A stretch of DNA of 64,000 nucleotides from Peptococcia bacterium (GCA_050951605.1 JBMNJJ010000009.1:36-64035); one strand, 5' to 3'; numbered from the stretch's first letter, positions 13,670 through 59,723 are shown. Program-made: numbers and translations. Notes: generated by a model from the sequence alone, not told the origin.

Positions 13670-13873
13670 AAAACTCCTACAAAGGTGCGTGTTGCTCTTT
13701 TGGTAAGAGTTTTAATTTTGGGGAGTAGTTGTTTTTTATTTTACGGAAGAGGTTGCGGATAAGGTTCACAATATTGTTTACGTATGCTATAGTAAAAAAT
13801 AAAAGGTAATGAAGTTTACCTTTTAAGCTAATGACTCTTACAAAGGTGTGTCGCTCTTTTTGTAGGAGTTTTA
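13670..13873. repeat. Two copies of a ~40-bp imperfect palindrome in a divergent intergenic region
   Basis: actcctacaaaggtgcgtgttgctcttttggtaagagtttta (13673-13714) and actcttacaaaggtgtgtcgctctttttgtaggagtttta (13834-13873). Confidence 0.75.
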
Positions 13874-13899
13874 GTTTTACTTGCTGGGAGGCGTTGATA

Positions 13900-14556
13900 G
13901 TGGCTTTATTGGAATTGCAAAATGTATCATACCAAAATGAAAATAAAAGCATTCTCAAAAATATATCATTACAAATAGATGCGGGTGATTATCTTTCTAT
14001 TATAGGACCTTCGGGTAGTGGCAAAAGTACATTTTTGAAGCTTTGTGCTCATTTGTTAAGTCCTACGGAAGGAAAGATTTTCTTTAAGGGGAAAGACTTT
14101 AGAGAATATAACCCGTTAGAGTTAAGGAGAAAGATTGGTTACTGTGCACAAACACCTTGTTTGTTTGGGGATACAGTGGAAGACAATCTTTCTTTCCCTT
14201 ATTTAATAAGGAAGCAAAAAGTTGACTTAGCTAGAGTAGAAGCATTGTTTTCTAGTTTTAATCTGGACTTTGAATTTATGAAAAAGGATGTACAAAGTCT
14301 TTCCGGTGGTGAAAAACAGAGAATCGCTTTAATTAGAACATTGTTATTTAAACCGGAAATTCTTCTTTTAGATGAAGTAAGTTCAGCATTAGATGTTGCG
14401 AATACTTTATTTGTGGAAAAAGTCATTAGTTCCTTAAACAAAACAGGTACCACCGTTTTATGGATAACTCATGACTTAGAACAGAGTAGAAAGTATGCTC
14501 ATAAATTATTAACACTTGAAAATGGTGAAATCAAAGCATGGGAGGTTTTAAGATGA
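13900..14556 (+). CDS. fetA: ABC transporter ATP-binding protein, FetA/YbbL-like
   Basis: GPSGSGKST, LSGGEKQR, LLLDE, WITHD; GTG start after GGGAGG. Confidence 0.85.
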   Translation: MALLELQNVSYQNENKSILKNISLQIDAGDYLSIIGPSGSGKSTFLKLCAHLLSPTEGKIFFKGKDFREYNPLELRRKIGYCAQTPCLFGDTVEDNLSFPYLIRKQKVDLARVEALFSSFNLDFEFMKKDVQSLSGGEKQRIALIRTLLFKPEILLLDEVSSALDVANTLFVEKVISSLNKTGTTVLWITHDLEQSRKYAHKLLTLENGEIKAWEVLR

Positions 14557-15317
14557 ATTCAGGGGCGGCGATTAGTATATCTTCTCTTTTTATGGCGTCT
14601 TCACTGGTGGTAGTTTCTCTTTTGTTTTCTTATTTTCAAAAATTAGGGTTGGAAAAAGAAACGTTAATCAGTGTGGGGAGAGCTATTATTCAGCTCATTA
14701 TTGTAGGTTATATTCTTGAATATGTTTTCGGACAGCATAGTCCTGTGTTCACAACTTTACTACTTGTTTTTATGACCTTTAATGCTGCCTATAATGCGGC
14801 TAAAAGAGGGAAGAGGATTAGGAATGGTTTATTGATTTCTTTTGTTTCTATAGCCCTAGGAGCAATTATTACTTTATCTGTGCTTTTGTTATCCGGAGCG
14901 ATACAATATGAGCCGTTTCAAATCATTCCCATTGGGGGCATGATTATCAGTAATGCCATGATAGCCTTAGGACTTTGTTACCGGCGCTTGACTTCTGATT
15001 TTAAAGATAAAAGAGAAGAAGTAGAAGCAAAATTAGCTTTAGGAGCAGATATTTTACCAGCATCTTTGGAGATAATTAGGGATGCTATTCGTACGGGAAT
15101 GTTACCTATGATTGATTCGGCTAAGACTTTGGGAATTGTTGCTTTGCCCGGTATGATGACCGGGCTTATTTTAGCGGGAGTGTCCCCCGTAATGGCTATT
15201 CGTTATCAGATTATGGTTACTTTTATGATGCTATCGACCACGGCGATTGCTTCTTTTATGGCTTGCTATTTAGCTTATCGAACTTTCTTTAACCAGAGGA
15301 AACAGCTGATTAATTGA
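14553..15317 (+). CDS. fetB: Iron export ABC permease FetB/YbbM
   Basis: RAIIQL..VGYIL, IIPIGGMIISNAM, KTLGIVALPGMMTGLILAG. Confidence 0.9.
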   Translation: MNSGAAISISSLFMASSLVVVSLLFSYFQKLGLEKETLISVGRAIIQLIIVGYILEYVFGQHSPVFTTLLLVFMTFNAAYNAAKRGKRIRNGLLISFVSIALGAIITLSVLLLSGAIQYEPFQIIPIGGMIISNAMIALGLCYRRLTSDFKDKREEVEAKLALGADILPASLEIIRDAIRTGMLPMIDSAKTLGIVALPGMMTGLILAGVSPVMAIRYQIMVTFMMLSTTAIASFMACYLAYRTFFNQRKQLIN

Positions 15318-15406
15318 CAAGAAAAAGAAATCTGTTAAAATATAGCATATATGGAAGAGCAGTGTTAGAAAAAGGCTATGGGAATTTTATTTCAATAGCC
15401 TTTTTC
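15314..15406 (+). promoter_or_regulatory. Promoter-leader-hairpin element, copy A
   Basis: TTGACA-N16-TAAAAT (extended -10 TG), leader atagcatatatggaagag, hairpin aaaaggctat..atagcctttt upstream of RBS. Confidence 0.75.
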
Positions 15407-15427
15407 TTTGTTGAGGAGGAAGAAATA

Positions 15428-16318
15428 ATGAAGAAAAAGAGAGTCATGATTTTGCTTTTGGGAGTAATGTTGGGGTTAGCTCTACCTGTTTGGGCTACTA
15501 CACCTGATGTACGTGTTTATGTGGATGAGGTAGAAGTAGTTTTTCCTGACCAAAAACCATTGATCAATGCCGATAATCGTACTTTAGTACCACTTAGATT
15601 TGTTTCTCAGGCTTTAGGTGGTAAGGTAGAGTGGTTTAAAGAGACGAAAACAGTAGAGATGAAGCATGCAGGAGAAACAATCTTGCTGACAGTCGGCGAG
15701 AGGTTTGCCCGCAAAGGCCAGGAAAAAATCACTCTCGATACAACAGCAACAATTATGGGGGATCGCACCATGGTACCTTTGCGTTATGTGAGTGAATGCT
15801 TGGGTGCTCATGTTTACTGGAATGGAACTAAACGAAAAGTATTTATTACGACCCAATTGCCTTCCGTTAATGAGTTTGTGGGGCTTCCTTTTAAACCCAG
15901 TGATTTGCCTTTTAAAGGGGGAAGCAGGCCTTTAGAACGTTCAGACCTACCTTCAGCAAGGATTCAATATGTAAAAGTTTCAGAGTTGCCAGTAAAATTA
16001 AGTAAAAATTATACGATATATGACGTTAATGTTGATACTAAATATATATACATAAAACAGTTTTGTGATGTTAAAATTCCGGCTCCTTTATATATGGTAG
16101 AAAATGGGCAATTAAACAGGAATAGATGTTATACAAGTGATTTTCAAGAAAGTGTTGTTTTTACTTATAAATATCCTGTGCAGTCGAGATTAGAACAAGC
16201 GACGGGAGATAAGCCTGTAGATCTAAGTAAAATTGAAGGTTTTACTTTACACACGCTTAGTGATGGTAATTTTAGAATGCTAGTCATTGAGAATCCTCTT
16301 TACCAAGGAGGAGAATAG
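15428..16318 (+). CDS. Secreted copper-amine-oxidase N-terminal (stalk) domain protein, copy 1
   Basis: Signal peptide; FPDQKP..NRTLVPLRFVSQALG, RTMVPLRYVSECLGA.V.W; unknown C-terminal domain. Confidence 0.88.
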   Translation: MKKKRVMILLLGVMLGLALPVWATTPDVRVYVDEVEVVFPDQKPLINADNRTLVPLRFVSQALGGKVEWFKETKTVEMKHAGETILLTVGERFARKGQEKITLDTTATIMGDRTMVPLRYVSECLGAHVYWNGTKRKVFITTQLPSVNEFVGLPFKPSDLPFKGGSRPLERSDLPSARIQYVKVSELPVKLSKNYTIYDVNVDTKYIYIKQFCDVKIPAPLYMVENGQLNRNRCYTSDFQESVVFTYKYPVQSRLEQATGDKPVDLSKIEGFTLHTLSDGNFRMLVIENPLYQGGE

Positions 16319-18003
16319 TGGTGAAACGGGTTTTCTGGTTGGGGGTATTAACCTTTTTATTTTTTTCTTTACCTGTCTGGGCGCAAGAGGTGCCGGAAGA
16401 AGTGTTTTTAGGTGAAAGAATTGATGTGGGTTGTTTTAATATTTGGTTACATGCCGATGGCCGGACGTGGCAGAATACAGATGGCCAGCCGGGTCCGGAA
16501 GAGCCTTATGCCGGGACGGATTTAGATAATGATCCGCAAAAAGAAAAGTATTTACGCTATGTTACTTTTCAAGCTGAGCCTAATCAAGAATGGGAAAAGA
16601 GTTACGAGAATATTCGGGCGGAAGCAAGTGTTGATTGGTTTAAGACATTTACCAAAGAAGATTATGAGGTGGCCGGTGGTGCCGGGAAAGCAAGTAAAGA
16701 TGGACAAGAGTACGTTTCCCTAGAGTATGACCTTTTTTTTCCGCAAGTATGGGAACGTAGACCACATAGTTATCAATTAGCTCCTGAAATTTCGCCCTTA
16801 ACTGTTAAATTTTATTTACATGATAAAAGGCAAGCTGAAGATGTCAAACAAGAGGACCAGCTAGAGTTGGTAGAAGGTTGGCGGTGGTATTTGCCGGTCC
16901 ATCTCAAATTTTATGGTGTGCCTAAGCCTTTAGTTATAGATTTAGAAGCGGTAGAGATAAGACAAACTAGCCCTGTGCAGACGAATACCGAGCAGATAGC
17001 TACGGCTGTCTTGCGCAATAATGGTGATTGTTCAGAACAATTTACAGCTCAATATTTTGCCGATGGTAAAAAAATAGGTAGTGAAGTCTTAACTTTAGAA
17101 GCGGGAGAAAGTTGTACACGAAACTTTAATTGGCAAGCTCCGGCACAGGCGGGAAAATGCACCTTAAAGATAGAGGTGGTGCCGGTAGAGGGAGAAGTTA
17201 ATATAAGCAATAATATTAAAACGGCTTCGATTATGGTGGAGGAGCCTAATTTCATTGCTCCGCAATGTGACTTTATGAATATTGATGAAAATGAATGGTC
17301 GGAAACATATCATTGGCAAGAGAAACGTAACTGTAGCTATACTGATGATAATGGAGTGTATCATCCTGCAACTTGTACTAGCTCCAAAGAAAAAACAGTC
17401 ACTTATCAAGAAAAGCTCACGGTAGATTTTAGTATTAATACGAAACAGGGGGACCCTAATGGAGGTAGGGAAAGTCGCGGTTATTGGGAAATCTATCCTG
17501 ATACGCAAAACCGAGAACCGAAATATAATTCACAGCGTAAAATTAGCATCCATAGGCAGGACCCCAATAAAGTAACGCGGTCGGGTTATGGTTATGACTT
17601 AACAGTCAAGACAACATATTGGACTGATTGGGAAACGAAGGTACCTAGTAAAGCTAAGGCTAAAGGAGGGAGGTTTTCCGGACCACAACTCGTTGTGGTG
17701 CAATTTCAGGATCGTAATGAGATTGAAAAATTGGTTCCTGTAAAAACAGAAACCAAAGGAAAGAGTGTGCTTACTACTTGGAAATTGCCGAAAACAAGTC
17801 ATACTTTTCCCGATGGGGAAACAATTTGGGAGACTAAACATTATACTGATGTTAGCCTCCCTGATGGAGAATATTTAGTAAGGGCTATTGTTTCGCCGTG
17901 TGGGCAAGGAATAGGGGAAATTTGTCAGGATGATTATGTGTTCATTTACGGTAGTGTGTATGATGATATTTATACTCGCCCGGCGAAAGAAAGTGAGTGG
18001 TGA
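16318..18003 (+). CDS. Secreted CARDB-domain protein with C-terminal SGYG...HYT...PDG.Y...GS.YDD domain, copy 1
   Basis: Signal peptide; DL...V.N.G...L..GES....W...G...E....NN CARDB pattern at aa ~208-308. Confidence 0.75.
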   Translation: MVKRVFWLGVLTFLFFSLPVWAQEVPEEVFLGERIDVGCFNIWLHADGRTWQNTDGQPGPEEPYAGTDLDNDPQKEKYLRYVTFQAEPNQEWEKSYENIRAEASVDWFKTFTKEDYEVAGGAGKASKDGQEYVSLEYDLFFPQVWERRPHSYQLAPEISPLTVKFYLHDKRQAEDVKQEDQLELVEGWRWYLPVHLKFYGVPKPLVIDLEAVEIRQTSPVQTNTEQIATAVLRNNGDCSEQFTAQYFADGKKIGSEVLTLEAGESCTRNFNWQAPAQAGKCTLKIEVVPVEGEVNISNNIKTASIMVEEPNFIAPQCDFMNIDENEWSETYHWQEKRNCSYTDDNGVYHPATCTSSKEKTVTYQEKLTVDFSINTKQGDPNGGRESRGYWEIYPDTQNREPKYNSQRKISIHRQDPNKVTRSGYGYDLTVKTTYWTDWETKVPSKAKAKGGRFSGPQLVVVQFQDRNEIEKLVPVKTETKGKSVLTTWKLPKTSHTFPDGETIWETKHYTDVSLPDGEYLVRAIVSPCGQGIGEICQDDYVFIYGSVYDDIYTRPAKESEW

Positions 18004-18017
18004 ATTTTTACTGCTTA

Positions 18018-18246
18018 GTGAACCTCTCCCACTTATAGAAGATGGGGCTTCAAAGATATCACCATCCTAAATCCGAACGGTCTTCCGGTTAGGAAATCCT
18101 TGTCTACTAAGGACACTGTTCTCACCTCCTCCCCATATTTCGCCACAAACACAGGTTTGGAGTTAAGAGACAGTATTCATCCACCACCTATCTCTTGCTA
18201 AAGCAAGGAAGGAAGGGTTGAGGTGGCGGCCTTCTACTGAGCATTG
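18018..18246 (-). mobile_element. Non-autonomous IS200/IS605 miniature derivative (229 bp)
   Basis: Minus strand: TTTAT|caatgctcagtagaag left end; right-end hairpin gaagccccatcttctataagtgggagaggttcac; ends shared with the tnpB remnant at 22125-22754. Confidence 0.8.
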
Positions 18247-18259
18247 ATAAAATAATAAT

Positions 18260-18427
18260 ATGAACAAATACCTGTTATCATAGAAGAAAAGCGGTTGTTC
18301 TGATGAATAATAAACAAGATATCCTGTGGCCATTTACAGACCAAAGCCCAAAGATTTTACCAGAATGAAAGAACTTATTAGGGAAGCGATAATAGTGGCT
18401 TTGCGTATGGAAGGGGTGCGCGAATAA
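18260..18427 (+). pseudogene. Possible HicB-like antitoxin remnant
   Basis: Broken frames read MNKY..IIEE and MKELIREAI, reminiscent of HicB; weak. Confidence 0.3.
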
Positions 18428-18515
18428 GCACGTAATTTAAACCTATAGTTTTTGGGTACTAATCATGGTATAATATAAATGGAGACGAAATAGGTAGTAC
18501 AAAGCAGGTGAAATC

Positions 18516-18911
18516 ATGGATAGAGAAGTTTTGATTAATTATTGGGTTGAAACTGCCAATAGGGATTATAAAACTATGTTGAATTTATACAAAAGTAATG
18601 ATTATCACTGGAGTCTTTTTATAGGACATTTGGTTATCGAAAAGTTGCTTAAAGCTATATATGTTAAGAATATTGATGATAATCCACCTAGAATACATAA
18701 TTTACTAAGGTTAGCAGAGAAGGCACAAATTGATACAACTGAAGAGCAAAAAGATATATTGGATCTTATTACAACTTTTAATATAAATATAAGATATCCA
18801 GATTATAAACAAATGTTTTATAAGAAATGCGATTACGAATTTACAGCAGCTAATTTGCAAAAGATAAAGGAGTTGAGAATATGGCTTCTCACAATGATAG
18901 AAATAGAGTAG
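18516..18911 (+). CDS. HEPN domain protein
   Basis: W.LFIGHLVIEKLLKA, PPRIHNLLRLA, RYPD. Confidence 0.88.
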   Translation: MDREVLINYWVETANRDYKTMLNLYKSNDYHWSLFIGHLVIEKLLKAIYVKNIDDNPPRIHNLLRLAEKAQIDTTEEQKDILDLITTFNINIRYPDYKQMFYKKCDYEFTAANLQKIKELRIWLLTMIEIE

Positions 18912-19201
18912 AAGAAATTGTAAAAGAATATGGAAAATTAGTACAGGAAAAGGTAGATATAAAATATATATATTTATATGGTTCATATGCAAAAGGTACT
19001 CATTCACTAGATAGTGATATTGACATAGCTGTAATTGGAGATGATTTTATTGGAGATCCTATAGAAGATACCTTAATGTTAATGAGAATAAGAAGAAAAG
19101 TAGATAATAGAATTGAGCCTCGTTCATTTAAAACCAGTGAATTTAATTTATCTAATCCACTTGCAAGAGAAATAATAAGCACAGGAATAAAAATAATTTA
19201 G
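18881..19201 (+). CDS. Minimal nucleotidyltransferase (MNT), HEPN-MNT pair
   Basis: LYGSYAKG...DSDIDIAV; overlaps HEPN gene. Confidence 0.88.
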   Translation: MASHNDRNRVEEIVKEYGKLVQEKVDIKYIYLYGSYAKGTHSLDSDIDIAVIGDDFIGDPIEDTLMLMRIRRKVDNRIEPRSFKTSEFNLSNPLAREIISTGIKII

Positions 19202-19233
19202 GGTTTTTAAAACATTGATAAAAATGGAGATAT

Positions 19234-19421
19234 AAGTAGAAGCAAAATTAGCTTTAGGAGCAGATATTTTACCGGCATCTTTGGAGATAATTAGGGTTGC
19301 TATTTGTTATCGGATTATGGTTACTTTTATGATGCTCTCGACCACGGCAATTGCTTCTTTTATGGCTTGCTATTTCGCTTATCGAACTTTCTTTAATCAG
19401 AGGAAACAACTGATGAATTGA
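19234..19421 (+). pseudogene. fetB: Duplicated 3' fragment of fetB with 111-bp internal deletion
   Basis: Matches 15019-15317; the segment between the two gctattcgt microhomologies (15084 and 15195) is missing. Confidence 0.9.
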
Positions 19422-19511
19422 CAAGAAAAAGGAATCTGTTAAAATATAGCATATATGGAAGAGAAATATAAGAAAAAGGCTATGGGAATAAAATTCCCAT
19501 AGCCTTTTTCT
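19418..19511 (+). promoter_or_regulatory. Promoter-leader-hairpin element, copy B
   Basis: TTGACA-N16-TAAAAT; perfect 19-bp stem agaaaaaggctatgggaat-aaa-attcccatagcctttttct. Confidence 0.75.
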
Positions 19512-19531
19512 CTGTTGAGGAGGAAGAAATA

Positions 19532-20422
19532 ATGAAGAAAAAGAGAGTCATGATTTTGCTTTTAGGAGTAATGTTGGGGTTAGCTCTACCTGTTTTGGCT
19601 ACTACACCTGATGTACGTGTTTATGTGGATGAAGTAGAAGTGGCTTTTCCTGACCAACAGCCTTTGATTAATGCCGATAATCGTACTTTAGTACCACTTA
19701 GATTTGTTTCTCAGGCTTTAGGTGGTAAGGTAGAGTGGTTTAAAGAGACGAAAACAGTAGAGATAAAGCATGCAGGGGAAACAATCTTGCTAACAGTCGG
19801 CGAGAGGTTTGCCCGCAAAGGTCAGGAAAAAATCACTCTCGACACAACAGCAACAATTATGGGGGATCGCACCATGGTACCTTTGCGTTATGTGAGTGAA
19901 TGCTTGGGTGCTCATGTTTACTGGAATGGAACTAAACGAAAAGTTTTTATCACGACCAAATTGCCTCCTGTTAATGAGTTTGTGGGGATTCCTTTTAAAC
20001 CCAGTGATTTGCCTTTTAAAGGGGGAAGCAGACCTTTAGAACGTTCAGACCTACCTTCAGCGAGGATTCAATATGTAAAGCCATCCGAGCTACCAGTAAA
20101 ACTTAAGGATAGTAGAATTATTTACAATTTAACTGTTGATGAAAAATATATCTACATAAAGCAGTATTCTAAATTAAGATTACCGTTGCCTTTGTATATG
20201 GTAGAAGATGGGCAGTTAAATAGAGGAAGGCGTTATACAAGTGATTTACAGGAAAGTGTGGTTTTTACTTTTAAATATCCTGTACAATCCAGATTGGAAC
20301 AAGCCACTGGTGAGAAACCGGTTAATTTAAGTGAAATCAGTGGGTTTACTTTACATACAATTACTGACGAAGGATTCAGAATGTTGGTTATTGAGAATCC
20401 TCTTTACCTGGGAGGAGAATAG
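19532..20422 (+). CDS. Secreted stalk-domain protein, copy 2
   Basis: Paralog of 15428-16318; near-identical first ~183 aa, divergent C-terminal domain. Confidence 0.88.
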   Translation: MKKKRVMILLLGVMLGLALPVLATTPDVRVYVDEVEVAFPDQQPLINADNRTLVPLRFVSQALGGKVEWFKETKTVEIKHAGETILLTVGERFARKGQEKITLDTTATIMGDRTMVPLRYVSECLGAHVYWNGTKRKVFITTKLPPVNEFVGIPFKPSDLPFKGGSRPLERSDLPSARIQYVKPSELPVKLKDSRIIYNLTVDEKYIYIKQYSKLRLPLPLYMVEDGQLNRGRRYTSDLQESVVFTFKYPVQSRLEQATGEKPVNLSEISGFTLHTITDEGFRMLVIENPLYLGGE

Positions 20423-22110
20423 TGGTGAAACGGGTTTTCTGGTTGGGAGTATTATTCTTTTTATTTTTTCCTTTATCTGTCTGGGCGCAAGAGGTGCCCG
20501 AAGAAGTTTTTTTAGGTGAAAGAATTGATGTGGGCTGTTTTAATATTTGGTTACATGCTGATGGTCGGACGTGGCAGAACACAGATGGTCAGCCGGGTCC
20601 GGAAGAACCTTATGTCGGGACAGATTTAGATAATGACCCGCAAAAAGAAAAGTATTTACGCTATGTTACTTTTCGAGCTGAGCCTAATCAAGAATGGGAA
20701 AAGAGTTATGAGAATATTCGGGTGGAAGTAAGTGTCGATTGGTTTAAGACATTTAAGAAAGAAGATTATGAGGCTATTGGTGGTGCCGGGAAAGCGAGTA
20801 AAGATGGAGCGGGGTATATATATCTTGAAGAATATCAAGAGTTTGTATCTTTAGTTTGGGAAAGTAGACCACATAGTTATCAATTAGCTCCTGAAATTTC
20901 GCCCTTAACTGTTAAATTTTATTTACATGATAAAAGGCAAGCTGAAGATGTCAAACAGGAGGACCAGCTAGAGTTGGTGGAAGGTTGGCGGTGGTATTTG
21001 CCGGTCCATCTCAAATTTTATGGTGTGCCTAAGCCTTTAGTTATAGATTTAGAAGCGGTAGAGATAAGACAAACTAGCCCTGTGCAGACGAACACCGAGC
21101 AGATAGCTACGGCTGTCTTGCGCAATAATGGTGATTGTTCAGAACAATTTACAGCTCAATATTTTGCCGATCGTAAAAAAATAGGTAGTGAAGTCTTAAC
21201 TTTAGAAGCGGGAGAAAGTTGTACACGAAACTTTAATTGGCAAGCTCCGGCACAGGCGGGAAAATGCACCTTAAAGATAGAGGTGGTGCCGGTAGAGGGA
21301 GAAGTTAATATAAGCAATAATGTTAAAACGGTTTCGATTATGGTGGAGGAGCCTAATTTCATTGCTCCGCAATGTGACTTTATGAATATTGATGAAAATG
21401 AATGGTCGGAAACATATCATTGGCAAGAGAAACGTAACTGTAGCTATACTGATGATAATGGAGTGTATCATCCTGCAACTTGTACTAGCTCCAAAGAAAA
21501 AACAGTCACTTATCAAGAAAAGCTCACGGTAGATTTTAGTATTAATACGAAACAGGGGGACCCTAATGGAGGTAGGGAAAGTCGCGGTTATTGGGAAATC
21601 TATCCTGATACGCAAAACCGAGAACCGAAATATAATGCACAGCGGGGCATTAATATTTATGGGCAGGACCCCAATAAAGTAACGCGGTCGGGTTATGGTT
21701 ATGACTTAACAGTCAAGACAACATATTGGACTGATTGGGAAACGAAGGTACCTAGTAAAGCTAAGGCTAAAGGAGGGGGGTTTTCCGGACCACAACTCGT
21801 TGTGGTGCAATTTCAGGATCGTAATGAGATTGAAAAATTGGTTCCTGTAAAAACAGAAACCAAAGGAAAGAGTGTGCTTACTACTTGGAAATTGCCGAAA
21901 ACAAGTCATACTTTTCCTGATGGGGAAACAATTTGGGAGACTAAACATTATACTGATGTTAGTCTCCCTGATGGAAGATATTTAGTAAGGGCTATTGTTT
22001 CGCCGTGTGGGCAAGGAATAGGGGAAATTTGTCAAGATGAGCATGTGTTTATTTACGGTAGTGTGTATGATGATATTTATACCCGCCCGGCGAAAGAAAG
22101 TGAGTGGTGA
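20422..22110 (+). CDS. Secreted CARDB-domain protein, copy 2
   Basis: Paralog of 16318-18003. Confidence 0.75.
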   Translation: MVKRVFWLGVLFFLFFPLSVWAQEVPEEVFLGERIDVGCFNIWLHADGRTWQNTDGQPGPEEPYVGTDLDNDPQKEKYLRYVTFRAEPNQEWEKSYENIRVEVSVDWFKTFKKEDYEAIGGAGKASKDGAGYIYLEEYQEFVSLVWESRPHSYQLAPEISPLTVKFYLHDKRQAEDVKQEDQLELVEGWRWYLPVHLKFYGVPKPLVIDLEAVEIRQTSPVQTNTEQIATAVLRNNGDCSEQFTAQYFADRKKIGSEVLTLEAGESCTRNFNWQAPAQAGKCTLKIEVVPVEGEVNISNNVKTVSIMVEEPNFIAPQCDFMNIDENEWSETYHWQEKRNCSYTDDNGVYHPATCTSSKEKTVTYQEKLTVDFSINTKQGDPNGGRESRGYWEIYPDTQNREPKYNAQRGINIYGQDPNKVTRSGYGYDLTVKTTYWTDWETKVPSKAKAKGGGFSGPQLVVVQFQDRNEIEKLVPVKTETKGKSVLTTWKLPKTSHTFPDGETIWETKHYTDVSLPDGRYLVRAIVSPCGQGIGEICQDEHVFIYGSVYDDIYTRPAKESEW

Positions 22111-22124
22111 ACTTTTACTGCTTA

Positions 22125-22754
22125 GTGAACCTCTCCCACTTATAGAAGATGGGGGCTTCAAAGATATCACCATCCTAAATCCGAACGGTCTTCCGGTTAG
22201 GAAATCCTTGTCTACTAAGGACATCGATTTTTCTTTCGTCAAAATATTCTTGGCACCATGTATATCCCGATGTTCACTATAGCCACAGTAACACCTATAG
22301 ACTCTGCCGGATACTTTCTTTTTCCGGCCGCAAACAGGGCATGTTTGCGATGTATAGGCTTCATTTACTTTTCTAATGGTAATATTTTCGGCACCAAGTT
22401 TGTATTTCAAGATATTTGTACAGTGTTTTAACTTTTACAATCAAAGGCTTTTGACGTTTGCCTTGCCAGATACCCATACTTAGTTCTATTCTGCCATGAG
22501 GATAGATTTTAAAACCATTCTTTTTCCATCTGGTGTTAAAATTCTTTTTTTGCCGCCTGGGGTAACGTATAGCGGTATATCCATTTACCATGTTCTTTGC
22601 GGTAGTTTTTAGCTAAAGCCAATGTATCATTCCATATTTGTCCGGAGAGACGGTTACACACGAAAAGAAGTTCTCTTGTTTCCTTTACCACCTACCTCTT
22701 GCTAAAGCAAGCAAGGAAGGAAGGGTTGAGGTGGTGGTCTTCTACTGAGCATTG
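22125..22754 (-). mobile_element. tnpB: Internally deleted IS200/IS605 element with tnpB fragments
   Basis: VNEAYTSQTCPVCG..CYCG..HRDIHGAKNI (RuvC-III/zinc finger) plus an upstream YPRRQK..TRW fragment; both ends intact. Confidence 0.88.
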
Positions 22755-22907
22755 ATAAAATAGTTTTTATGATATAATTAAATGGCAAAGATACCATTCT
22801 TGTGGAGTAGATATTCTATGCTAAGGGGACATGATTTTTTAGAATAAGTGCCGAGTCTAGCAGGTTTTTGCTAGACTTTAGCGAAAAATATACTTTGGTG
22901 ATGTTGT

Positions 22908-24011
22908 TTGAAGACGATGACTGCTTTAATTAATGAATATTTAAATTCCCAAACAAAAAAAACAGTTGTTACCGGAGCAATAGAAACCTATCTGCAAGAG
23001 GTGTTAGGGCAGAGAGGATATTGGCAAAAAGAGGGTGGATATCCTTCTTTTGCTGAAAAGATGGAAACTCTTATTCAGCTGGGGGTGATTAGCCCTGTAA
23101 AAGCTTCTGGTTTAAATGGAAGGCAACCGCCTCTTTATGAAAAGTATAGATTGGTGAAGAAAAAGGATACTCTTGATCAAGCTACAAGACAAAAGTTATT
23201 AACTCAGTATCATCCGCAGATAAATATGACTCATTATTTAACACATGGGCAGGACTATCAAGTAGATAAACCATATCTTCAGAAGTTGGATAGTTTTTTA
23301 AAGCAATATCAGGATTTTGCTTTTTGGCCGCTGATTACAGCTAATGAACGTTCTTTTCAGATTTTTCATAATGAAAAATGGTTGTTGTCTAAGCATGGAC
23401 ATCTTTTTTGTCAGCGCACTGGGTTGTCGTTAGCTGCTTTGCGTTGCTATCAGACCTCCGAGCCCTTTTTTTATTATCCCGTTAGCATACCTAGGGGAAC
23501 GGAGGAAATTAAGGTACTTATTGTTGAGAATAAAGACACCTTTTTTTCTTTAAAGGGATTGTTTCAACAGGGTATCTATACTTGGGCTGATTATGTTTTT
23601 TCCCTGTTGATTTATGGTGAGGGGCGGAAGATCCAAAAGAGTTTTCGCTTTTACGAAGAATTGAGGGGATATCAAAATTATCAAGCTGCTTTTTATTATT
23701 TTGGAGACTTAGACCCTGAGGGGATCCGTATTTGGTATGACCTACAAAAAGAGTATGGGCTTGCCATCAAGCCTTTTACTTTATTTTATCAGGTTTTGTT
23801 TGAGAAGTATGGTCAAAATGCTCCTTCTCTGTCTGCAGGTAAAAAAGCGGGACAACGTTATTCTAAAAAAGCGATCAGGGCCTTTTTAACCTATTTTGAA
23901 CAGAATCTGGCGACAGGGATTCGGCAAATGTTGGTAGAGAAAAAATACCTTCCTCAGGAAGGTCTGCATTATGTTTTGTTAAAGGAATTAGCTGAAAAAC
24001 AGGAAAGATAA
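22908..24011 (+). CDS. jetD: Wadjet JetD Toprim nuclease (DUF2220-like)
   Basis: NERSFQIF..EK, T.EPF, IVENKDTF, YGEG, YFGDLDPEG; first gene of a four-gene SMC operon. Confidence 0.88.
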   Translation: MKTMTALINEYLNSQTKKTVVTGAIETYLQEVLGQRGYWQKEGGYPSFAEKMETLIQLGVISPVKASGLNGRQPPLYEKYRLVKKKDTLDQATRQKLLTQYHPQINMTHYLTHGQDYQVDKPYLQKLDSFLKQYQDFAFWPLITANERSFQIFHNEKWLLSKHGHLFCQRTGLSLAALRCYQTSEPFFYYPVSIPRGTEEIKVLIVENKDTFFSLKGLFQQGIYTWADYVFSLLIYGEGRKIQKSFRFYEELRGYQNYQAAFYYFGDLDPEGIRIWYDLQKEYGLAIKPFTLFYQVLFEKYGQNAPSLSAGKKAGQRYSKKAIRAFLTYFEQNLATGIRQMLVEKKYLPQEGLHYVLLKELAEKQER

Positions 24012-24025
24012 GGTGAACGCGAAAA

Positions 24026-25585
24026 ATGCAGATACAATGGCTAGACGATATATTAAATGGGTTTTCTGAGCGGATGGACAATATTGCCGTTTTTATGCCT
24101 ATTTTTGAGTTGAACCAGAAAACAAAATATCCTTATCACTTGCCTGCTCTTGCGATTGCGGTGATGTTGTTTATTCTTGAAGATATGTTGCGAGCGGAAA
24201 AGAACTGTACTTATGAATCGATCGCCTATTTTCTGCAAAAGATTATTTCCAGACAGTATCATGAAGAATTAAGCTATGAACAAGCCTTGGAATTATCCGA
24301 ATTTATAGTGCGGAAGGGTTTAATGAAACAGGGCCGTTTTCATGTTTTTACGTATCCTGATTTGGAAACGGGAAGAGAGAAGACTCACAAATTTAATCTC
24401 GTGGAGTTAGAGGACTACGAGATTAAAGAGCGTTCCGTCAGGTTGAAATTATCAACTTTCGGTGTGGAAATGTTGTTTAAAACGAAGGAAATGTATAATG
24501 AACTACAGGTTTCCATTACGCAATTATATTTAAGACAACAGATTCAGAAGGGTGTTTTTGATGGTGCTTTGCGGTCAGTGGAAGAACTGGCCTTAGCTGT
24601 TAAAAATGAAAAGCAGAAAATCCGTCAACTGCAAGAAAATATTATTCGTGATGTTCTTCAGGTAGCCAGAGAACAAGAATTGGAAAGACAGATGGAGAGG
24701 ATCAATGAGCAATTAACCAGAGAAAAGACTGTTTTTAAAGAACTGCAAGAATTGATTGATTATACGTTGGAGGAATATTATTCCGGGAAACTTTCGGCAC
24801 AGGAAGAAGAGGCGATCGAAAAAATTGCTAAAGTCCGTCAGAGGCTGATGGAGGTAATTTGTTTGCACGAATCTTTATTTACAGATAAAATTCGTGTACA
24901 AAACTTGATGAATCATTCTATTGAAACAATGATTTTGACAGCTTTTAATACTAAAGTAAATTTCGAAACGGAATTTCTTTTTCCGGTAGTGCAAAACAAT
25001 GTTTCTCTTGATGTATTAAAGAAAATTTTAGACCCTCTGTTTTCGGTAAAATGCCGTCCTCTTTTTCATCCCGGCAGGGTTTTTGAACCACAGTATTTAT
25101 ATAATAGGGGAGAGGACTTGGCCGAAGAGCAATGGTTGGAACTCGAGGAGGAGCAAATTAGGCGGGAAGAAGAAAAGGAACGGGAAAGGCAAGCAGAACG
25201 AGAAAAAAGAATGGAAAAGTATCTTTTAATGCTGCTGGAACCTTTAGTTATACAGGAAGAAACGACGGTTGGTGCCGTACTGGAATGTTTAAAAGAAAAA
25301 GACCCTGAGGAATATAATGCTTTAGTAAATCAACTGGACTTTTATCCTTTGATTATTCAACTGCATCAGTTGGGACAGATACCTTTATTGGCTACGTGGG
25401 AAACAGAAACTTTAGTTTTAGATGATTTGCCGCGTACTTTGGTTAAAATTGCGGCTGAGCATGAGGAGATACATCAACTAAAGTGTTTTGAACTGGTGGC
25501 GTTGGAGGAAATTATTTCCTTACCTAATGGTTATGTTATGTCGGACTTTAAAATAAGAAGAGGTGACCCCGATGGAACTGTATGA
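24026..25585 (+). CDS. jetA: Wadjet type III JetA (kleisin-like)
   Basis: LF.TKE.......SI.QL.L.QQI.KG.FD.A motif; position in the D-A-B-C operon. Confidence 0.8.
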   Translation: MQIQWLDDILNGFSERMDNIAVFMPIFELNQKTKYPYHLPALAIAVMLFILEDMLRAEKNCTYESIAYFLQKIISRQYHEELSYEQALELSEFIVRKGLMKQGRFHVFTYPDLETGREKTHKFNLVELEDYEIKERSVRLKLSTFGVEMLFKTKEMYNELQVSITQLYLRQQIQKGVFDGALRSVEELALAVKNEKQKIRQLQENIIRDVLQVAREQELERQMERINEQLTREKTVFKELQELIDYTLEEYYSGKLSAQEEEAIEKIAKVRQRLMEVICLHESLFTDKIRVQNLMNHSIETMILTAFNTKVNFETEFLFPVVQNNVSLDVLKKILDPLFSVKCRPLFHPGRVFEPQYLYNRGEDLAEEQWLELEEEQIRREEEKERERQAEREKRMEKYLLMLLEPLVIQEETTVGAVLECLKEKDPEEYNALVNQLDFYPLIIQLHQLGQIPLLATWETETLVLDDLPRTLVKIAAEHEEIHQLKCFELVALEEIISLPNGYVMSDFKIRRGDPDGTV

Positions 25586-26315
25586 AGAAGATGTACGCTG
25601 GGCTTTTCGTATCTTTATGCGTCTTTTAGAAAAGGGTGTTATTGAGGAAAATGAGCGGGAGTATCAGCATGAGTATTTACGTAATGAAGTTAGATATATT
25701 TTGGAAGAAGTAATAGAACGAGAGGCTGATGTCAAGATTTTTGCAGCGGGAGGGGTTATTTTTCTTACTCCGGGGGTAGCTAACCGTTTTTTTGGCTATA
25801 CCAATGCTGAATTAAGGGAGAAAATGGGGCTGCGCAACAACAGTGAACTTTATTTAGCTTACTTTATCATCCTTAACCTACTCGCTAAGTTTTATAATAG
25901 TGATGACCAGTCTTTAGCTTCTCGTCAGTTTGTTCCTTTAGAAGAGTTGGAAGAAACCATAACTCAGCATGTGCAGACGATTATGGAAGCTGAAGAGGAG
26001 GAAGTACAGATTCAGGAAGAAAACTTTGACCTCAATTTACGTAGTGTAGCTGAGGTATGGTTGGACTTGCCCCCTTTTGATGACCAGGTGATTAATCTAA
26101 ATAGAGCGCGTAATAATAGAATCAGTCTTTTGTTAAGGGTGATGAGGTTTCTGGAGGAGGAAGGTTTGGCTCAAGTCTTAGATGCTAGAGAGGTCAGGCT
26201 CTTACCGAAAATGGAATATTTAGTGCTCAAATATTATTTTAATAGTCAGCGCAAAGATTATTTGCTACAGTTATTAGCTCGGGATTTACCTCTGACGCCA
26301 GAAGGAAAAGATTAA
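25572..26315 (+). CDS. jetB: Wadjet type III JetB (DUF6063-like kite subunit)
   Basis: N..FGYTN.EL...M.L..N.ELYL.YF....L...FY. Confidence 0.8.
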   Translation: MELYEEDVRWAFRIFMRLLEKGVIEENEREYQHEYLRNEVRYILEEVIEREADVKIFAAGGVIFLTPGVANRFFGYTNAELREKMGLRNNSELYLAYFIILNLLAKFYNSDDQSLASRQFVPLEELEETITQHVQTIMEAEEEEVQIQEENFDLNLRSVAEVWLDLPPFDDQVINLNRARNNRISLLLRVMRFLEEEGLAQVLDAREVRLLPKMEYLVLKYYFNSQRKDYLLQLLARDLPLTPEGKD

Positions 26316-26332
26316 AGTGAGGTGCCAAAATT

Positions 26333-29300
26333 ATGCCACGTCTTAATCGGATTCGAGTAACTAATATTCAGTATGACCACGGTAAAAAACAATTGCCGGA
26401 CCTTTTATTTGATGTCAAAAGTCTCGATACTTTATTTATTCTGGCCAATGGAGGCGGAAAGTCTTTGTTGGTTCAGTTGATTTTGCAAGTAATTCTTCCT
26501 AATAGCAGAATGGGTAAGCGAAAGGTCGAAGACTTATTGCAAGCAGGGTCTTATACCGGGCATATTGCTGTGGAATGGCTCTTGGATAGTTCCGGGGAAC
26601 GCAGGCAGTTTTTATGTACCGGTTTTTGTTTTAGTGGGGGTCAAAACACTGAACGCCCGCTTCGTTATTATAATTACCTTTTTGACTATGATGACCAGTC
26701 ACAATTGACGATTGAAGAGTTACCTTTGATTTATACCGAAGAAGGTTACAAACGTCCTATCCAGTATCAAAAGCTAAAGGATTGGCTTCGTGAAAACGGG
26801 ATTCAACCTCTTGATAGACCGGAAACATATCAGGAAAGATTGAAAATATATCAGATCTTACCGGAAGAATGGAAAAATATTCGCAAGACTAATGGTGATG
26901 AAGGTGGAGTGGATAAATTTTTTGAAAAAAGTAAGACCACTAGACAATTAATGGATAATCTATTAATTCCTTCTGTGGAAGAAATGATTTTTCAGGACGA
27001 GCAGAAAAAGCAAGAGCTGTTTCATGCTTTTACTCAGTATCGGGAAATGCTTTTGGAAATTCCGGTGATCAAACAGAATTTACAAGACTTTGCTTTGATT
27101 CGTGATGCTGCGGAAGGAGTAGTGGAAGAAGCCGAAGTTTTAAACCAACGGCAAAAGACCTTTACGGCACAGACTAAGGAAATTGTCCGCTTGGCCCGGT
27201 CTTTTTATGACTTTAGTACTGTGGCTCAAAAAGCTGTAGAACAATTGGGACAAGAAAAAGAAGCGGTTGTCATACAGTATAAAGACCTTGAGTGGCAGGA
27301 GCGGAGCTATCAATGGTTTTTGCGGAAATTGGAGTTAAGTAAAGCTAAACTTGCGGAGAATTGCGTTCAAGAAGAATATCAGCAGGCTGAGGGTTTATGG
27401 CAAAAAGCAGAAGATAATGAGAATCGTCTGCAGGCCCTTTATTATTTTAATGAAGTGCAAAAAGCGGTCCAGGAAGGATTGAAGTTTCGCCGTCAATTGG
27501 AATTAATGGAACGAGCGGAACCGGAATTACAGGTATTGCTGGTCCAAAAGAAGCAAGTGCTTAAGTCTGCTTGGCAAGAAAGAAAAACAGCAATAACAAA
27601 ACAGCTGAATAGTGAGGAAGAGGCTTTAGTGAAGCTGCAAGAAGAAAAAGAAGTTTTAACCGGGGAAAAGAAAGAAGCAAAGTTAAAACAGCGAGAATTA
27701 ACTAAGCAGATTGCTGTTGTCGAGAACTGGTTGGCTGAATATAAGAAAAAAAGACAGGACTTGCTGAACGCCGTAGAAACGGCAGAGGTTTTAGACCCTG
27801 TTGCTAGTTTACAAAAACGCCGTGCTACTTTTCAGCACTATGAACAAAGAGAAGCTGAAACCATTGAACGTCAAAGACAATTAGCTTCTCAACGGGAAGA
27901 ATTAGAACAGACAATTTTTAATTTAGGTAAAGAGAAATATCAACTCGAAATAGAGGTCAAAAGTTTAGAGGAAAAGTTAGCAAGGCAGCAAACAGAAGAA
28001 GACCATCTGCGAGGAACGCTTAGTGCACAAGGAATTTATCTAAAGTCTTTATCGGCAGAAAAAGAAGTGGCACTATTGAGGGTTAAAGATTTACTAAGGG
28101 AGGTACAGGAGAAAAAACTAGGTTTACAGGCAGAACTGGCTAATCTCCAGGAAAAATGGGCTTTGTTGGCAGGGCGAGACTATTATGTGCCTCACCACGA
28201 CTTGTTGAGGATAAAAAACAGATTAGAAAGGGCTGGAGTTTATACGGTTTTAGGTAGTGAATGGTTAGCGGAACAGTCTTTAGCAGAGCCGGAAAAAGAA
28301 GCGGTTTTGCAAAAACAACCTTTTTTGCCTTTTGCGATTTTGCTGGAGGCTAATCAGGTTAATACAGTTAAACATATTGTTAGACAGGGGAAAGAGTGGA
28401 CTTGTGATGTGCCCCTGCTGTTTTTGGTGAAAAGTGCCGCTACTTTACAGGGGGAAGAAAGAGGAGAGAATTTCTTTCCTTTGTGGCAGGAGGAGTTGTA
28501 TCTTTTCCGTCCTGATACCTTCTCGGTATATACATCGACGGAGTCCTTTTTAGATTTAAAGAATCGGATGCAAGAAAAAATCAAAGCTAAACAGCAAGAG
28601 GTAGCGGAAGAAGTTGGGCAGGAAAGGCTTTTGTTTAGCTTACAGGAAAAATTGGCTAATTTTTATCGTCAGTATCCGGCAGAGTTGGTGCAAGAGTGGG
28701 AAGAGGAGAAGGAACAATTGCAAGCTAATGTTCTCTCTCTTGTTCAGGAAATTGAAGCGGAGGGGATACGTAAAAAGCAACTCCAAGAGGAAGGGCTGCA
28801 ATTAGAAAAACTTCTTGCGGAAATAGTTTTGGTCAAGGGGAAATTAAAAGAAATTATAGGTAAGCTGGAGGCATTTAATTCTTTACATCTTTTATATCCA
28901 AAGCAAGAGACTGAGCAAAAGGAATTAGCTGAAAAATTACAGCAGGTAGAATTAGGATTAGGGGAAATAGAGGAAAGACTAATAGCAATATCTGGGGAAG
29001 AGGTAGAAAAAAGGAATAGAATTAAGGACTTAGGTAAACAAAGAGAAGAACACGAGGAGGACTTTAGCAAGTATCGGTTAATCGGAATCGAATCAGAAGG
29101 TGAGAGGTTAGTTGACTATGACTATGCCCGTATTGAAGTAGAAGGGATTCTTGCTCAATTAAATGAAAAACAGAGTGAACGAGCTAATATTCAGGACCTT
29201 TTAGAAAAAACAATTAAGCAGCGCGAGGATGCTTTGTTTGAGGTGGAGAGAACCGGCATTGAAAAAGAGTGGTTAAAACAAAATCAGCGTCCGGTCAATA

Positions 29301-58219: not shown

Positions 58220-59723
58220 AAAATATGATATAATTTGTAAACAATGATAAATAATGTTTGGAGTTGATGTTCGTTGCGTGAGCTGTTGAGGGCTACATCT
58301 AGTTTTTTAAGGAACGGGAGAAGAAACTGCTTACGGGAAATAAGTAAGTACTGCCAAATTACAGGGTGGGATGCGACACTGGAGTCTGCTAGTACGTGGG
58401 CCAGGGAAGGTGGTGGCGAAGACCCGGATTTATTTTTGATTAATAGTACTGTTTATCTTTCTCATGCTGGGTCAACAAAAAAGTGCTAAAACGAAAGAGT
58501 TCTTGCGGATGTTGTTGACGATCAAGGAAGAGCGGCACAAGAGTCAGATCGTTTTATTATTACCGGAAAAGATGATTGTTGAGCGTGATTTGCTAGCTCA
58601 ATCTTATCAAGATGCAGGTGTATAACTTTTGGTTTTTAGATAGTTTTGCGGCAGAAGATGTGCAAGAGTTTGTTTTAACGCGCAGAACTTTAGCGCGATG
58701 TGGAAAAGTATTTACTGGTAAAGAGAGAGAGAATTACATCATTTAAAAGGGAGCAATAATTTCATACCCCGTGAGGGAGAAAAGCTTTTTCAGCCTTACC
58801 ATGTTAAATCAAATATTCTCACCTTTTGGTCGGAAAATAATACGGCACTTAATTGTGGTCTGGCTTTGCTGACAGCCTTAAATTTAGCCGAGTGCGGTTT
58901 TCAAGTTGCGTTGGTGGAAACTGTTAGCTCTGTACCTTCTTTGGGCGGTTGTCTGGCGGTAAGTCATCCTTATTTTAATACGAGTCATGCTCTTTCTATG
59001 TATTTGCAGGGTAATAATGACTTTATCAAAAACTGCCTTAATCATGCCGAAAAACATCTGGCTAGCCCTTATGCTACGGAGGATTGTCAACATTTACGTT
59101 ATTTTCCAACAGGGTTTTATTTTTTACCTGATAGCAAAAGGGAGGATAATGCTACAGAGAGGGAGATGAAGGAAGTTTGGCGTGCATTTATGATGGCTCT
59201 TTCACGTTTTATTATTTTTGAACAAGGTTTTCATTTTCTTATTTTTCTGGCTTCAGGCAGGAATTTTTTTAATCAGGTAGTTTTAGAGGAATTTACTTAT
59301 CTAAAATTTATCACGGTGGACATGCTTCCCTCGAGTGTTTTGTATGGTCTTAGAGAGAGGAAAAAAGAACAGGGAAGAGTACAGATTATCGGAGCCAATA
59401 ATTTGAAAAGTATTAATCAAGAGCTTAAAGGGCTTAGGGAGGAGCCTTTTCTTTATCCTCCGCAGACTTTTATAGCAGACTTTTTGCAGTATGTATATAC
59501 TCAAGACTATCGGAAAATAACGCGTGAGACACAGGTGTTTATTAATCGTCTGATGGAGATAAGTGGAGTTAAAGTGCCTACTTTAGACATTGAGAAAAAA
59601 GGTTTAGGGGAAAGATTGCGGGATTATAAAAAAGCTTTATTCGGAGATTTTTTATAATAAAATGTAAAATAAGCTAGAATAAACCAAAAAATATGATATA
59701 ATTTATAAACTATGATAAATAAT
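58220..59723 (+). promoter_or_regulatory. Duplicated 36-bp promoter element (58220-58255 and 59688-59723)
   Basis: aaaatatgatataattt[g/a]taaac[a/t]atgataaataat, 34/36 identical, contains extended -10 TGaTATAAT. Confidence 0.8.
58268..59657 (+). CDS. Degenerate receiver + MinD/ParA-like (CpaE/TadZ-like) protein, multiple frameshifts
   Basis: Position at start of Tad operon; ALNLAECGFQVALVE resembles the post-Walker-A segment; weak. Confidence 0.45.

Follow-up and report, generated by a model that had tools for sequence, protein, structure and literature searches.

Why does a genome keep two copies of one pair of predicted secreted proteins that are nearly identical over most of their length and sharply different in a few segments? 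This question is raised by a 64,000-nucleotide (nt) stretch of DNA from a Peptococcia bacterium (GCA_050951605.1; contig C9:36-64035 of an assembly of 1.9 Mb in 9 contigs), hereafter the window, in which two overlapping genes, here called A and B, occur twice between positions 15428 and 22110. With about even confidence, we read the window's pairs as a secreted pair associated with the Tad pilus, in which conserved modules would dock and a recombining two-gene cassette would form a variable head, present here in two versions.

Comparison of the window with itself by blastn placed the duplicate units at 15195-18115 and 19299-22223, with 92.85% identity over 2937 columns (182 mismatches and 23 gap openings). 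All genes of both pairs lie on the plus strand: A1 (296 amino acids [aa], 15428-16318) and B1 (561 aa, 16318-18003) in unit 1, and A2 (296 aa, 19532-20422) and B2 (562 aa, 20422-22110) in unit 2. All four open reading frames (ORFs) are open and have Pfam matches, in agreement with the initial annotation, which had described a duplicated, coupled pair of secreted proteins. The stop codon of A overlaps the start codon of B as TAGTG, with GGAGGAG directly upstream. Therefore, translational coupling is plausible, and A and B are probably co-translated. A promoter-like site precedes pair 1 (15314-15341, plus strand; TTGACA, a 16-nt spacer and TAAAAT with a TG extension, 11 of 12 consensus positions, a consensus match only), and a site with identical hexamers precedes pair 2 (19418-19445, plus strand). 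Thus, both copies retain a promoter-like site as well as full ORFs. By inspection, the leaders of A and B appear to be of Sec type, with a basic n-region, a hydrophobic core and a VWA/T or VWA/Q junction.

We then compared the two copies column by column. A1 and A2 are identical in 259 of 297 aligned columns (87%), and B1 and B2 in 530 of 563 (94%). At the nucleotide level, 216 of 2925 columns differ, and the longest identical run is 304 nt (17226-17529), a length reached in 0 of 2000 shuffles, the largest shuffled run being 159. The counts of differences in 60-nt windows had a mean of 4.5 and a variance of 37.4, giving a variance-to-mean ratio of 8.3. The clustering of differences is thus far beyond chance, and the long identical stretches and concentrated divergence that had been noticed at the outset are both real features of the alignment.

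Three segments hold the divergence. The first is the C-terminal part of A (aa 184-296; 15976-16318 in A1, plus strand, and 20080-20422 in A2). The second, patch 1 of B, covers aa 129-150 (16702-16767 in B1, plus strand, and 20806-20874 in B2) and forms a strand and a helix of the N-domain in the model. The third, patch 2 of B, covers aa 405-416 (17530-17565 in B1, plus strand, and 21637-21672 in B2). The B patches read QEYVSL-EYDLFFPQVWERR against AGYIYLEEYQEFVSLVWESR and SQRKISIHR against AQRGINIYG, as quoted in the initial annotation. Patch 2 lies in the C-domain of B, within an insertion of about 13 aa that is missing from most homologs. The block that holds its start (aa 401-410) has a predicted local distance difference test score (pLDDT) of 66, followed by a block at 90, and patch 2 is therefore predicted to be a loop.

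Synonymous (dS) and nonsynonymous (dN) divergence between the copies was estimated for each segment by the Nei-Gojobori method. In A, aa 1-183 gave a dS of 0.14 and a dN of 0.017 (dN/dS 0.12), and aa 184-296 gave 1.26 and 0.21 (dN/dS 0.16). In B, the values were 0.25 and 0.042 for aa 1-128 (dN/dS 0.17), 0.02 and 0.005 for aa 151-404 (dN/dS 0.25), and 0.055 and 0.015 from aa 417 to the end (dN/dS 0.27). For patch 1 (aa 129-150), dS was saturated, with a dN of 0.35 and no ratio, and for patch 2 (aa 405-416), dS was 0.76 and dN 0.27 (dN/dS 0.36). A sixty-fold range of dS within one duplicate cannot result from a single duplication date followed by point mutation. On these estimates, the divergent segments are old, constrained alleles, and the remainder is young or homogenised. 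With dN/dS of 0.16-0.36, the divergent segments are constrained rather than decaying. Diversifying selection after the duplication, as proposed initially, does not fit these values: islands of old synonymous divergence in a homogenised background (dS 1.26, saturated and 0.76, against 0.02 in B aa 151-404) indicate old alleles placed by recombination or gene conversion, not fast change after duplication. Judged from the sequences, both A-B copies are under purifying selection. A diversity-generating retroelement was also considered as a source of the variation and rejected: within the genome, the variable segments have matches in the three paralogous copies alone, no template repeat was found, and the sole RVT_1 match lies on another contig, C6.

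A third A-B copy lies on contig C3 at about 53.3-56.3 kb, on the minus strand (loci L003 and L097). At positions 15997-16056, copy 2 is 92% identical to the third copy and only 62% identical to copy 1, while the third copy and copy 1 share 60%. Outside this patch, copies 1 and 2 are the closest pair among the three. Therefore, the paralogues have exchanged segments. The frames of the third copy are broken only inside the variable patches: in A, three stops fall within five codons near aa 280, and in patch 1 of B, the frame changes several times over a stretch of about 100 nt; B aa 150-561 is open, and intact versions occur in public data (P0012 and P0002). These broken frames may reflect either genuine decay or errors of the consensus at polymorphic sites, given that the assembly includes variant contigs: C1 (30 kb) and C7 (37.6 kb) match C9:52-83 kb at 97-99.5% identity, housekeeping genes included, and are thus probably strain variants within the assembly. 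A UPF0236 transposase fragment lies upstream of the third copy, with polysaccharide-synthesis genes on both sides.

The same mosaic pattern was found in other sequences. Among 16 A proteins, 5 of the 120 pairs (A1/A2, A1/P0017, P0015/P0025, P0018/P0019 and P0021/P0023) have stalk domains that are 95-99% identical and a block at aa 184-235 that is only 48-62% identical. In two other metagenome-assembled genomes (MAGs) of the order, paralogous A-B pairs (L026 vs L027 and L031) repeat the split into conserved and variable parts: the N-terminal half of A is 83-100% identical and its C-terminal half 46-60%, and the first 180 aa or so of B are 23-73% identical and the rest 80-100%. At the nucleotide level, the variable part is one contiguous block of about 900 nt with 44-66% identity, spanning the 3' half of A and the 5' third of B. 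The arms around it are mostly 84-100% identical, with one 90-nt window at the 3' edge of the block at 73%. Loci L037, L041, L051 and L052 show a similar, less sharp split. Judged from these alignments, the window's pairs look like a partly homogenised version of this two-gene cassette. We propose that old head alleles move between paralogues and between strains when the conserved arms undergo homologous recombination or gene conversion, and that the same process may have homogenised most of the two copies here and left islands of old divergence.

A neutral history could produce a comparable picture, if a recent duplication had been patched by gene conversion from an older paralogue and the divergent islands had no functional meaning. 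The existence of a third paralogue that shares a patch with copy 2, and the insertion sequence remnants that flank the copies, are what such a history would leave. We consider it very unlikely, however, because the divergent segments are constrained, the same domains are variable in independent genomes and in the five public A pairs, and the boundaries of the variable segments match domain borders.

The joint variation of the two proteins also bears on an early suggestion that the variable parts form a matched interface. According to this explanation, the variable C-domain of A binds the variable N-domain of B, and each copy is matched in a lock-and-key manner. The C-terminal part of A and the N-terminal part of B do vary together, in the window and in the paralogues of the two other MAGs; moreover, the genes overlap and are probably co-translated, and they are adjacent in 45 of 61 loci of relatives. 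That part of the suggestion stood. The co-variation is, however, already accounted for by physical contiguity, as a contiguous DNA block is inherited as one cassette and no interface is required. Only three A-B pairs are known from the genus, a number too small to test linkage between A heads and B heads; a scan of metagenome contigs with the A alignment found one close locus among 37 (L098), and it ends before B. A complex prediction for mature A and mature B with separate alignments stayed below its mark (scores of 0.26 and 0.00 against 0.32) and speaks neither for nor against contact. Specificity of cognate pairs is unlikely in our judgment, and the recombining cassette with a docked base is the reading that we carry forward.

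What, then, are the conserved and variable modules? A starts with a signal peptide and a Cu_amine_oxidN1 'stalk' domain (aa 32-140), which a flexible linker (aa 143-182) joins to a small beta-sandwich (aa ~183-293). The Pfam family PF07833 matched A1 with 112.8 bits and A2 with 113.8 bits (cut-off 24.2). The modelled stalk domain aligned with the N-domain of Escherichia coli amine oxidase, 1d6u_A, with a Z of 9.8 and a root-mean-square deviation (rmsd) of 2.2 Å over 76 residues (model residues 53-128; VIA-align). The mean pLDDT of the A model is 62.5, and the linker falls below 50. For the C-domain of A, generic Ig-like sandwich matches alone were obtained, with Z of at most 6.7 in a low-confidence model. 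A single-sequence search of the PDB with A gave a chance-level match, and the A1 profile gave one weak match inside the stalk domain.

In B1, the signal peptide is followed by an alpha/beta N-domain (aa ~29-200), then by a CARDB domain (aa 205-310) and finally by a C-domain (aa ~320-561). PF07705 (CARDB) matched B1 with 30.8 bits and B2 with 29.6 bits (cut-off 22.7). The B model has a pLDDT of 87.9, and its CARDB domain aligned with 3idu_A with a Z of 15.1 and an rmsd of 1.6 Å over 102 residues (VIA-align). The C-domain, about 240 aa long, is more strongly conserved than any other part of the family: 18 sequences share 40 invariant columns, and its motifs are NTKQG, RESRG.WEI, VTRSGYG, DWETKVP, KHYTD and IYG..YDD.YTR. 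The initial annotation had placed an SGYG..HYT..PDG..GS.YDD domain near Firmicute Tad loci; this link holds in the neighbourhood survey described below, but the motif belongs to the CARDB protein B and not to the stalk protein.

The C-domain of A and the N- and C-domains of B matched no family in the local Pfam, NCBIfam or PADLOC libraries. A single-sequence PDB search with B listed among its matches only the CARDB-domain chain 2l0d_A (E 1.5e-4), and a PDB search with the profile of the B-family alignment (A3) gave 0 matches. Fold searches with the whole B model (Foldseek against the PDB, a wide VIA-align search, and BFVD) were dominated by CARDB and Ig-like matches, and an ESM Atlas search gave no usable match. 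PF27438 is a precomputed tag on B relatives and lies outside the local Pfam library used for B. In B relatives of 800-1090 aa, the CARDB and C-domain unit stands at the end, behind PQQ_2 beta-propellers (in several) or other N-terminal regions. Therefore, the family retains a C-terminal base and swaps its N-terminal head.

Taken together, the conserved modules are the stalk domain of A and the CARDB domain plus the ~240-aa C-domain of B, and the variable module is the C-terminal beta-sandwich of A plus the N-domain of B, encoded by one DNA block across the A/B junction. The conserved modules may serve as docking parts that attach A-B to the pilus machine, to its fibre or to the cell wall, and the variable block may form an outward-facing head that bears specificity. 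Since purifying selection acts on both copies, the two heads would serve the cell as alternatives in Tad-associated adhesion or recognition.

The proposed association with Tad comes from the gene neighbourhoods of B relatives. We scanned one genome per species and obtained 61 loci, in which ORFs were called crudely and then clustered. Their sources are MAGs of Peptococcia, Peptococcaceae and Thermincola type and many Paenibacillus. ORF calling recovered B in 56 of the 61, and an A-family gene lies immediately upstream of B on the same strand in the 45 loci mentioned above. At least two Tad marker clusters were present in 22 of 61 loci; of the 32 loci whose upstream sequence reaches 6 kb or more, 15 have them. 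The recurring neighbours, named by Pfam, are a TadZ-like protein (AAA_31/CbiA), a T2SSE ATPase, a T2SSF-like protein, DUF4320 (TadE-like), RcpC/CpaB and Peptidase_A24. The gene order in relatives is TadZ/TadA/TadB-C, the DUF4320 pseudopilin, RcpC/CpaB, A, B and the A24 prepilin peptidase. On the Paenibacillus polymyxa plasmid pAP1 (L135; RefSeq annotation), for example, the order is the ATPase, DUF4320, RcpC/CpaB, three intervening genes, a copper amine oxidase N-terminal domain protein, a CARDB protein and an A24 peptidase. In Paenibacillus (L045-L078), the Tad-A-B-A24 cluster is often followed by TubZ and Replic_Relax genes, and the locus is therefore plasmid-like; it is also found on plasmids, and six plasmid records match. 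A 9.3-kb contig labelled as a plasmid (L058) carries the A-B pair and a few small ORFs only. The window thus holds a genuine tandem duplicate of an operon whose two genes encode predicted Sec-secreted proteins, and in related Firmicutes this operon appears to be a standing part of Tad (Flp, type IVc) clusters.

Some relatives carry several modules as well. In Peptococcia MAG loci L036, L034 and L038, two stalk-domain genes precede a B of about 960-1000 aa, forming A-A-B modules that sometimes occur twice per contig; in L036, the second B is broken up into three ORFs. The window is therefore not alone in having the module multiplied locally.

The genome of the window has its own Tad operon, and its type is the one that in relatives includes A-B. 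The operon begins at 58866 on the plus strand, close to where the initial annotation had put it (58-64 kb), and runs past the end of the window to about 65.7 kb, closing with an RcpC/CpaB-like gene and a 169-aa ORF before housekeeping genes follow. Neither an A-B pair nor an A24 peptidase gene lies beside this operon; A24 peptidases are encoded elsewhere in the genome. The arrangement is thus complementary, in that a Tad operon of the A-B-carrying type stands here without A-B and the pairs stand detached elsewhere. Directly upstream of the operon, window positions 52603-58138 encode large secreted proteins with RCC1 repeats, cadherin-like beta-sandwiches and Laminin_G_3. The Paenibacillus Tad loci likewise hold giant FN3/SLH proteins (cluster 8), and a big surface protein may therefore be a regular companion of these Tad genes.

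Several observations weigh against a pilus-associated pair. The window's pairs lie outside the Tad operon, behind fetAB and about 37 kb upstream of it, and the Tad ATPase ORF is interrupted on C9; the variant contigs C1 and C7 have it intact (457 aa). Fewer than two Tad markers were found in 39 of the 61 loci; the same holds for 17 of the 32 whose upstream flanks are long. Detached pairs thus occur commonly, and A-B may work without a pilus. Co-occurrence of B and DUF4320 at the genome level is confounded by phylogeny: among 61 genomes, both were present in 23, B alone in 5, DUF4320 alone in 5 and neither in 28, and inside the order the counts are 23, 5, 4 and 2, respectively. In all 7 of the 7 same-family genomes with both genes, B and DUF4320 are never adjacent, so that detachment of A-B from the operon looks like a family trait; in 5 genomes of other families, they lie on one contig within a few kb of each other. 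By inspection, A and B have no prepilin-type (class III) leader and therefore cannot be pilins, and searches of Pfam and NCBIfam assigned neither protein to a tad, rcp or cpa family. Moreover, the A model is weak, as its pLDDT indicates, and no fold match that would give a function was found for the N- or C-domain of B or the C-domain of A, the non-CARDB domains of B having been barely probed by the whole-model searches.

A rival reading sees A-B as a surface or wall pair, for example an adhesin or a binding protein, that is independent of Tad and often rides near Tad genes, its variation arising from exposure to phages, predators or neighbours. The detachment here and in the same-family genomes, the many loci with fewer than two Tad markers, and the Sec-type leaders on both proteins are all in line with it. 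Against it, the pair occupies a fixed site between rcpC/cpaB and the A24 peptidase gene in two distant groups, the Peptococcia-like MAGs and Paenibacillus, and this genome's Tad operon is the one without the pair. A Tad-independent role therefore seems improbable to us, and association with the Tad pilus is the reading that we retain. Secretion, pilus association, a function in adhesion or recognition, and the selective agent are all properties that we infer from the sequences.

We compared A-B with known systems. Related loci resemble the Gram-positive Tad (Flp, type IVc) loci (Imam et al. 2011, PMC3244431) in holding TadZ-like, TadA/CpaF (T2SSE) and TadB/C-like genes, a small Flp-like ORF, DUF4320, RcpC/CpaB and an A24 peptidase, and in relatives A-B sits between RcpC/CpaB and the A24 peptidase. 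The named tad genes do not include A or B, and the window's pair is duplicated and detached from the operon. In the literature searched, no published link of PF07833 or CARDB proteins with Tad loci was found.

The Kil/Tad pilus of Myxococcus, according to Herrou et al. (2025, PMC12075869), has interchangeable 'Tip' complexes, which are minor-pilin complexes matured by the prepilin peptidase. In that system, several alternative modules that expose variable domains serve one Tad machine, much as two or three A-B pairs stand beside one operon type. The difference from the 'Tips' described there is that A and B have Sec-type leaders and no pilin features, and a tip location for A-B is something that we purely infer.

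PilY1/PilC proteins, the non-pilin tip adhesins of type IVa pili, are Sec-secreted and modular, and they combine a conserved docking part with a variable one. A-B is similarly of Sec type, non-pilin and modular, and the long B relatives have a PQQ_2 beta-propeller. However, the propeller is N-terminal in the B relatives and absent from the window's B, and the pilus class differs. No PilC/PilY1 Pfam match was listed for B, and the whole-model fold search was dominated by CARDB.

Pilin and surface-antigen cassettes vary surface proteins by recombination through conserved arms. The A-B pairs share with them a divergent contiguous block between conserved arms, mosaic alleles and old synonymous divergence. 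They differ in that A-B has no silent, promoterless cassettes, both copies having promoter-like sites and full ORFs, and in that the cassette spans two genes. As for other CARDB (PF07705) and Cu_amine_oxidN1 (PF07833) proteins, B and A score above the respective Pfam cut-offs and their folds were matched, but these domains say little on function, and the defining parts are the C-domain of A and the N- and C-domains of B. Polymorphic toxins or contact-dependent inhibition found no counterpart here: no toxin or immunity family was matched by A or B in Pfam, NCBIfam or PADLOC, and, unlike in polymorphic toxins, the C-terminus of B is the most conserved part rather than the variable one.

We also tentatively suggest, at a probability clearly short of even, that A-B is an undescribed accessory module of monoderm Tad pili. 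In such a module, Sec-secreted non-pilins would dock via their conserved parts and present one composite head, made of the A C-domain and the B N-domain and encoded by a single recombining cassette. Several detached pairs would then provide alternative heads for one machine, as a Gram-positive counterpart of the Tad 'Tips'.

A further question is whether the tandem is genuine. An assembler could have laid two strain alleles in tandem, and such a chimera is made conceivable by the metagenome-type assembly, which holds the strain-variant contigs C1 and C7 alongside C9:52-83 kb. We compared the region with public contigs, which are short unitigs from 4 bioreactor or digester runs of 4 studies; none of those in the 4 runs crosses the whole unit. 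The public data are therefore consistent with the tandem and do not prove it. One 1149-nt public contig covers 18086-19234 with 0-1 differences in runs X1 and X2. Pieces specific to copy 1 (15898-16210 and longer) and to copy 2 (20002-20440 and 20095-20419) occur in X1, X2 and X3. The loose unitig ends at 19205 and 19235 arise from a repeat of 31 nt whose other copy is on contig C5 of this genome, which explains the branch in the public unitigs and implies no other arrangement. The copy on C5 (C5:8381-8471) is exact; in the window, the repeat (19205-19235) sits at the 3' end of the MNT gene region.

The layout of the two units argues in the same direction. Unit 1 takes in the last ~300 nt of fetB (14538-15317, plus strand; a UPF0014 permease, PF03649, E 8.7e-81). 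Unit 2 is headed not by a full fetB but by a decayed 3' remnant with an internal deletion (19234-19420, plus strand; seen from repeat matches, with no ORF called); a further repeat match, 15019-15089 vs 19234-19304 with 97.2% identity, is the fetB 3' end. The decay of the co-duplicated fetB fragment had also been noticed in the initial annotation. Between the units lies a unique spacer that encodes a HEPN protein (18516-18911) and an MNT-type nucleotidyltransferase (18881-19201), both on the plus strand (18516-19201; PF05168, PF18765 and PF01909). A TnpB-type remnant follows each pair on the minus strand. The one behind pair 1 (18044-18254) is about 400 nt shorter than the one behind pair 2 (21982-22762), which comprises a TnpB C-terminal fragment (PF07282, Cas12f1-like_TNB, E 3.6e-18) and the remaining repeat. 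Accordingly, the spacing of the TnpB-remnant repeats D4-D6 is 4108 vs 4504-4508, and another repeat match there pairs 18183-18254 with 22687-22762 at 90.8% identity. Given the deleted fetB remnant, the unique spacer, the ~400-nt difference between the TnpB remnants, the public contigs and the source of the loose ends, an assembly chimera is extremely unlikely, and we treat the tandem as real.

Upstream of fetB lies fetA (13831-14556), an ABC ATPase (PF00005); fetA and fetB, 5' of pair 1, are iron-export genes. Directly 3' of unit 2, window positions 22908-30742 encode a complete Wadjet system of type III, with JetD3 (E 3.5e-96), JetA3 (1.6e-134), JetB3 (5.7e-74) and JetC3 (3.8e-161) in this order. 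The HEPN/MNT pair is toxin-antitoxin-like, and its nucleotidyltransferase also matches the PADLOC candidate families PDC-S09 and PDC-M05A. With Wadjet, HEPN/MNT and the TnpB remnants, the stretch beside fetAB looks like a small island of defence and mobile-element genes.

Gram-positive Tad pili have been little studied, and the interest of A-B lies in what might take the place of the diderm machine's outer components and give such pili their binding specificity. Present between rcpC/cpaB and the gene for the prepilin peptidase both in Peptococcia-like anaerobes and on plasmids of Paenibacillus, the A-B pair is a concrete and genetically testable candidate. If A-B proves unrelated to the pilus, an ordinary duplication of polymorphic surface proteins would remain. 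The two-gene variable block, if true, would be a compact example of surface specificity shuffled by recombination.

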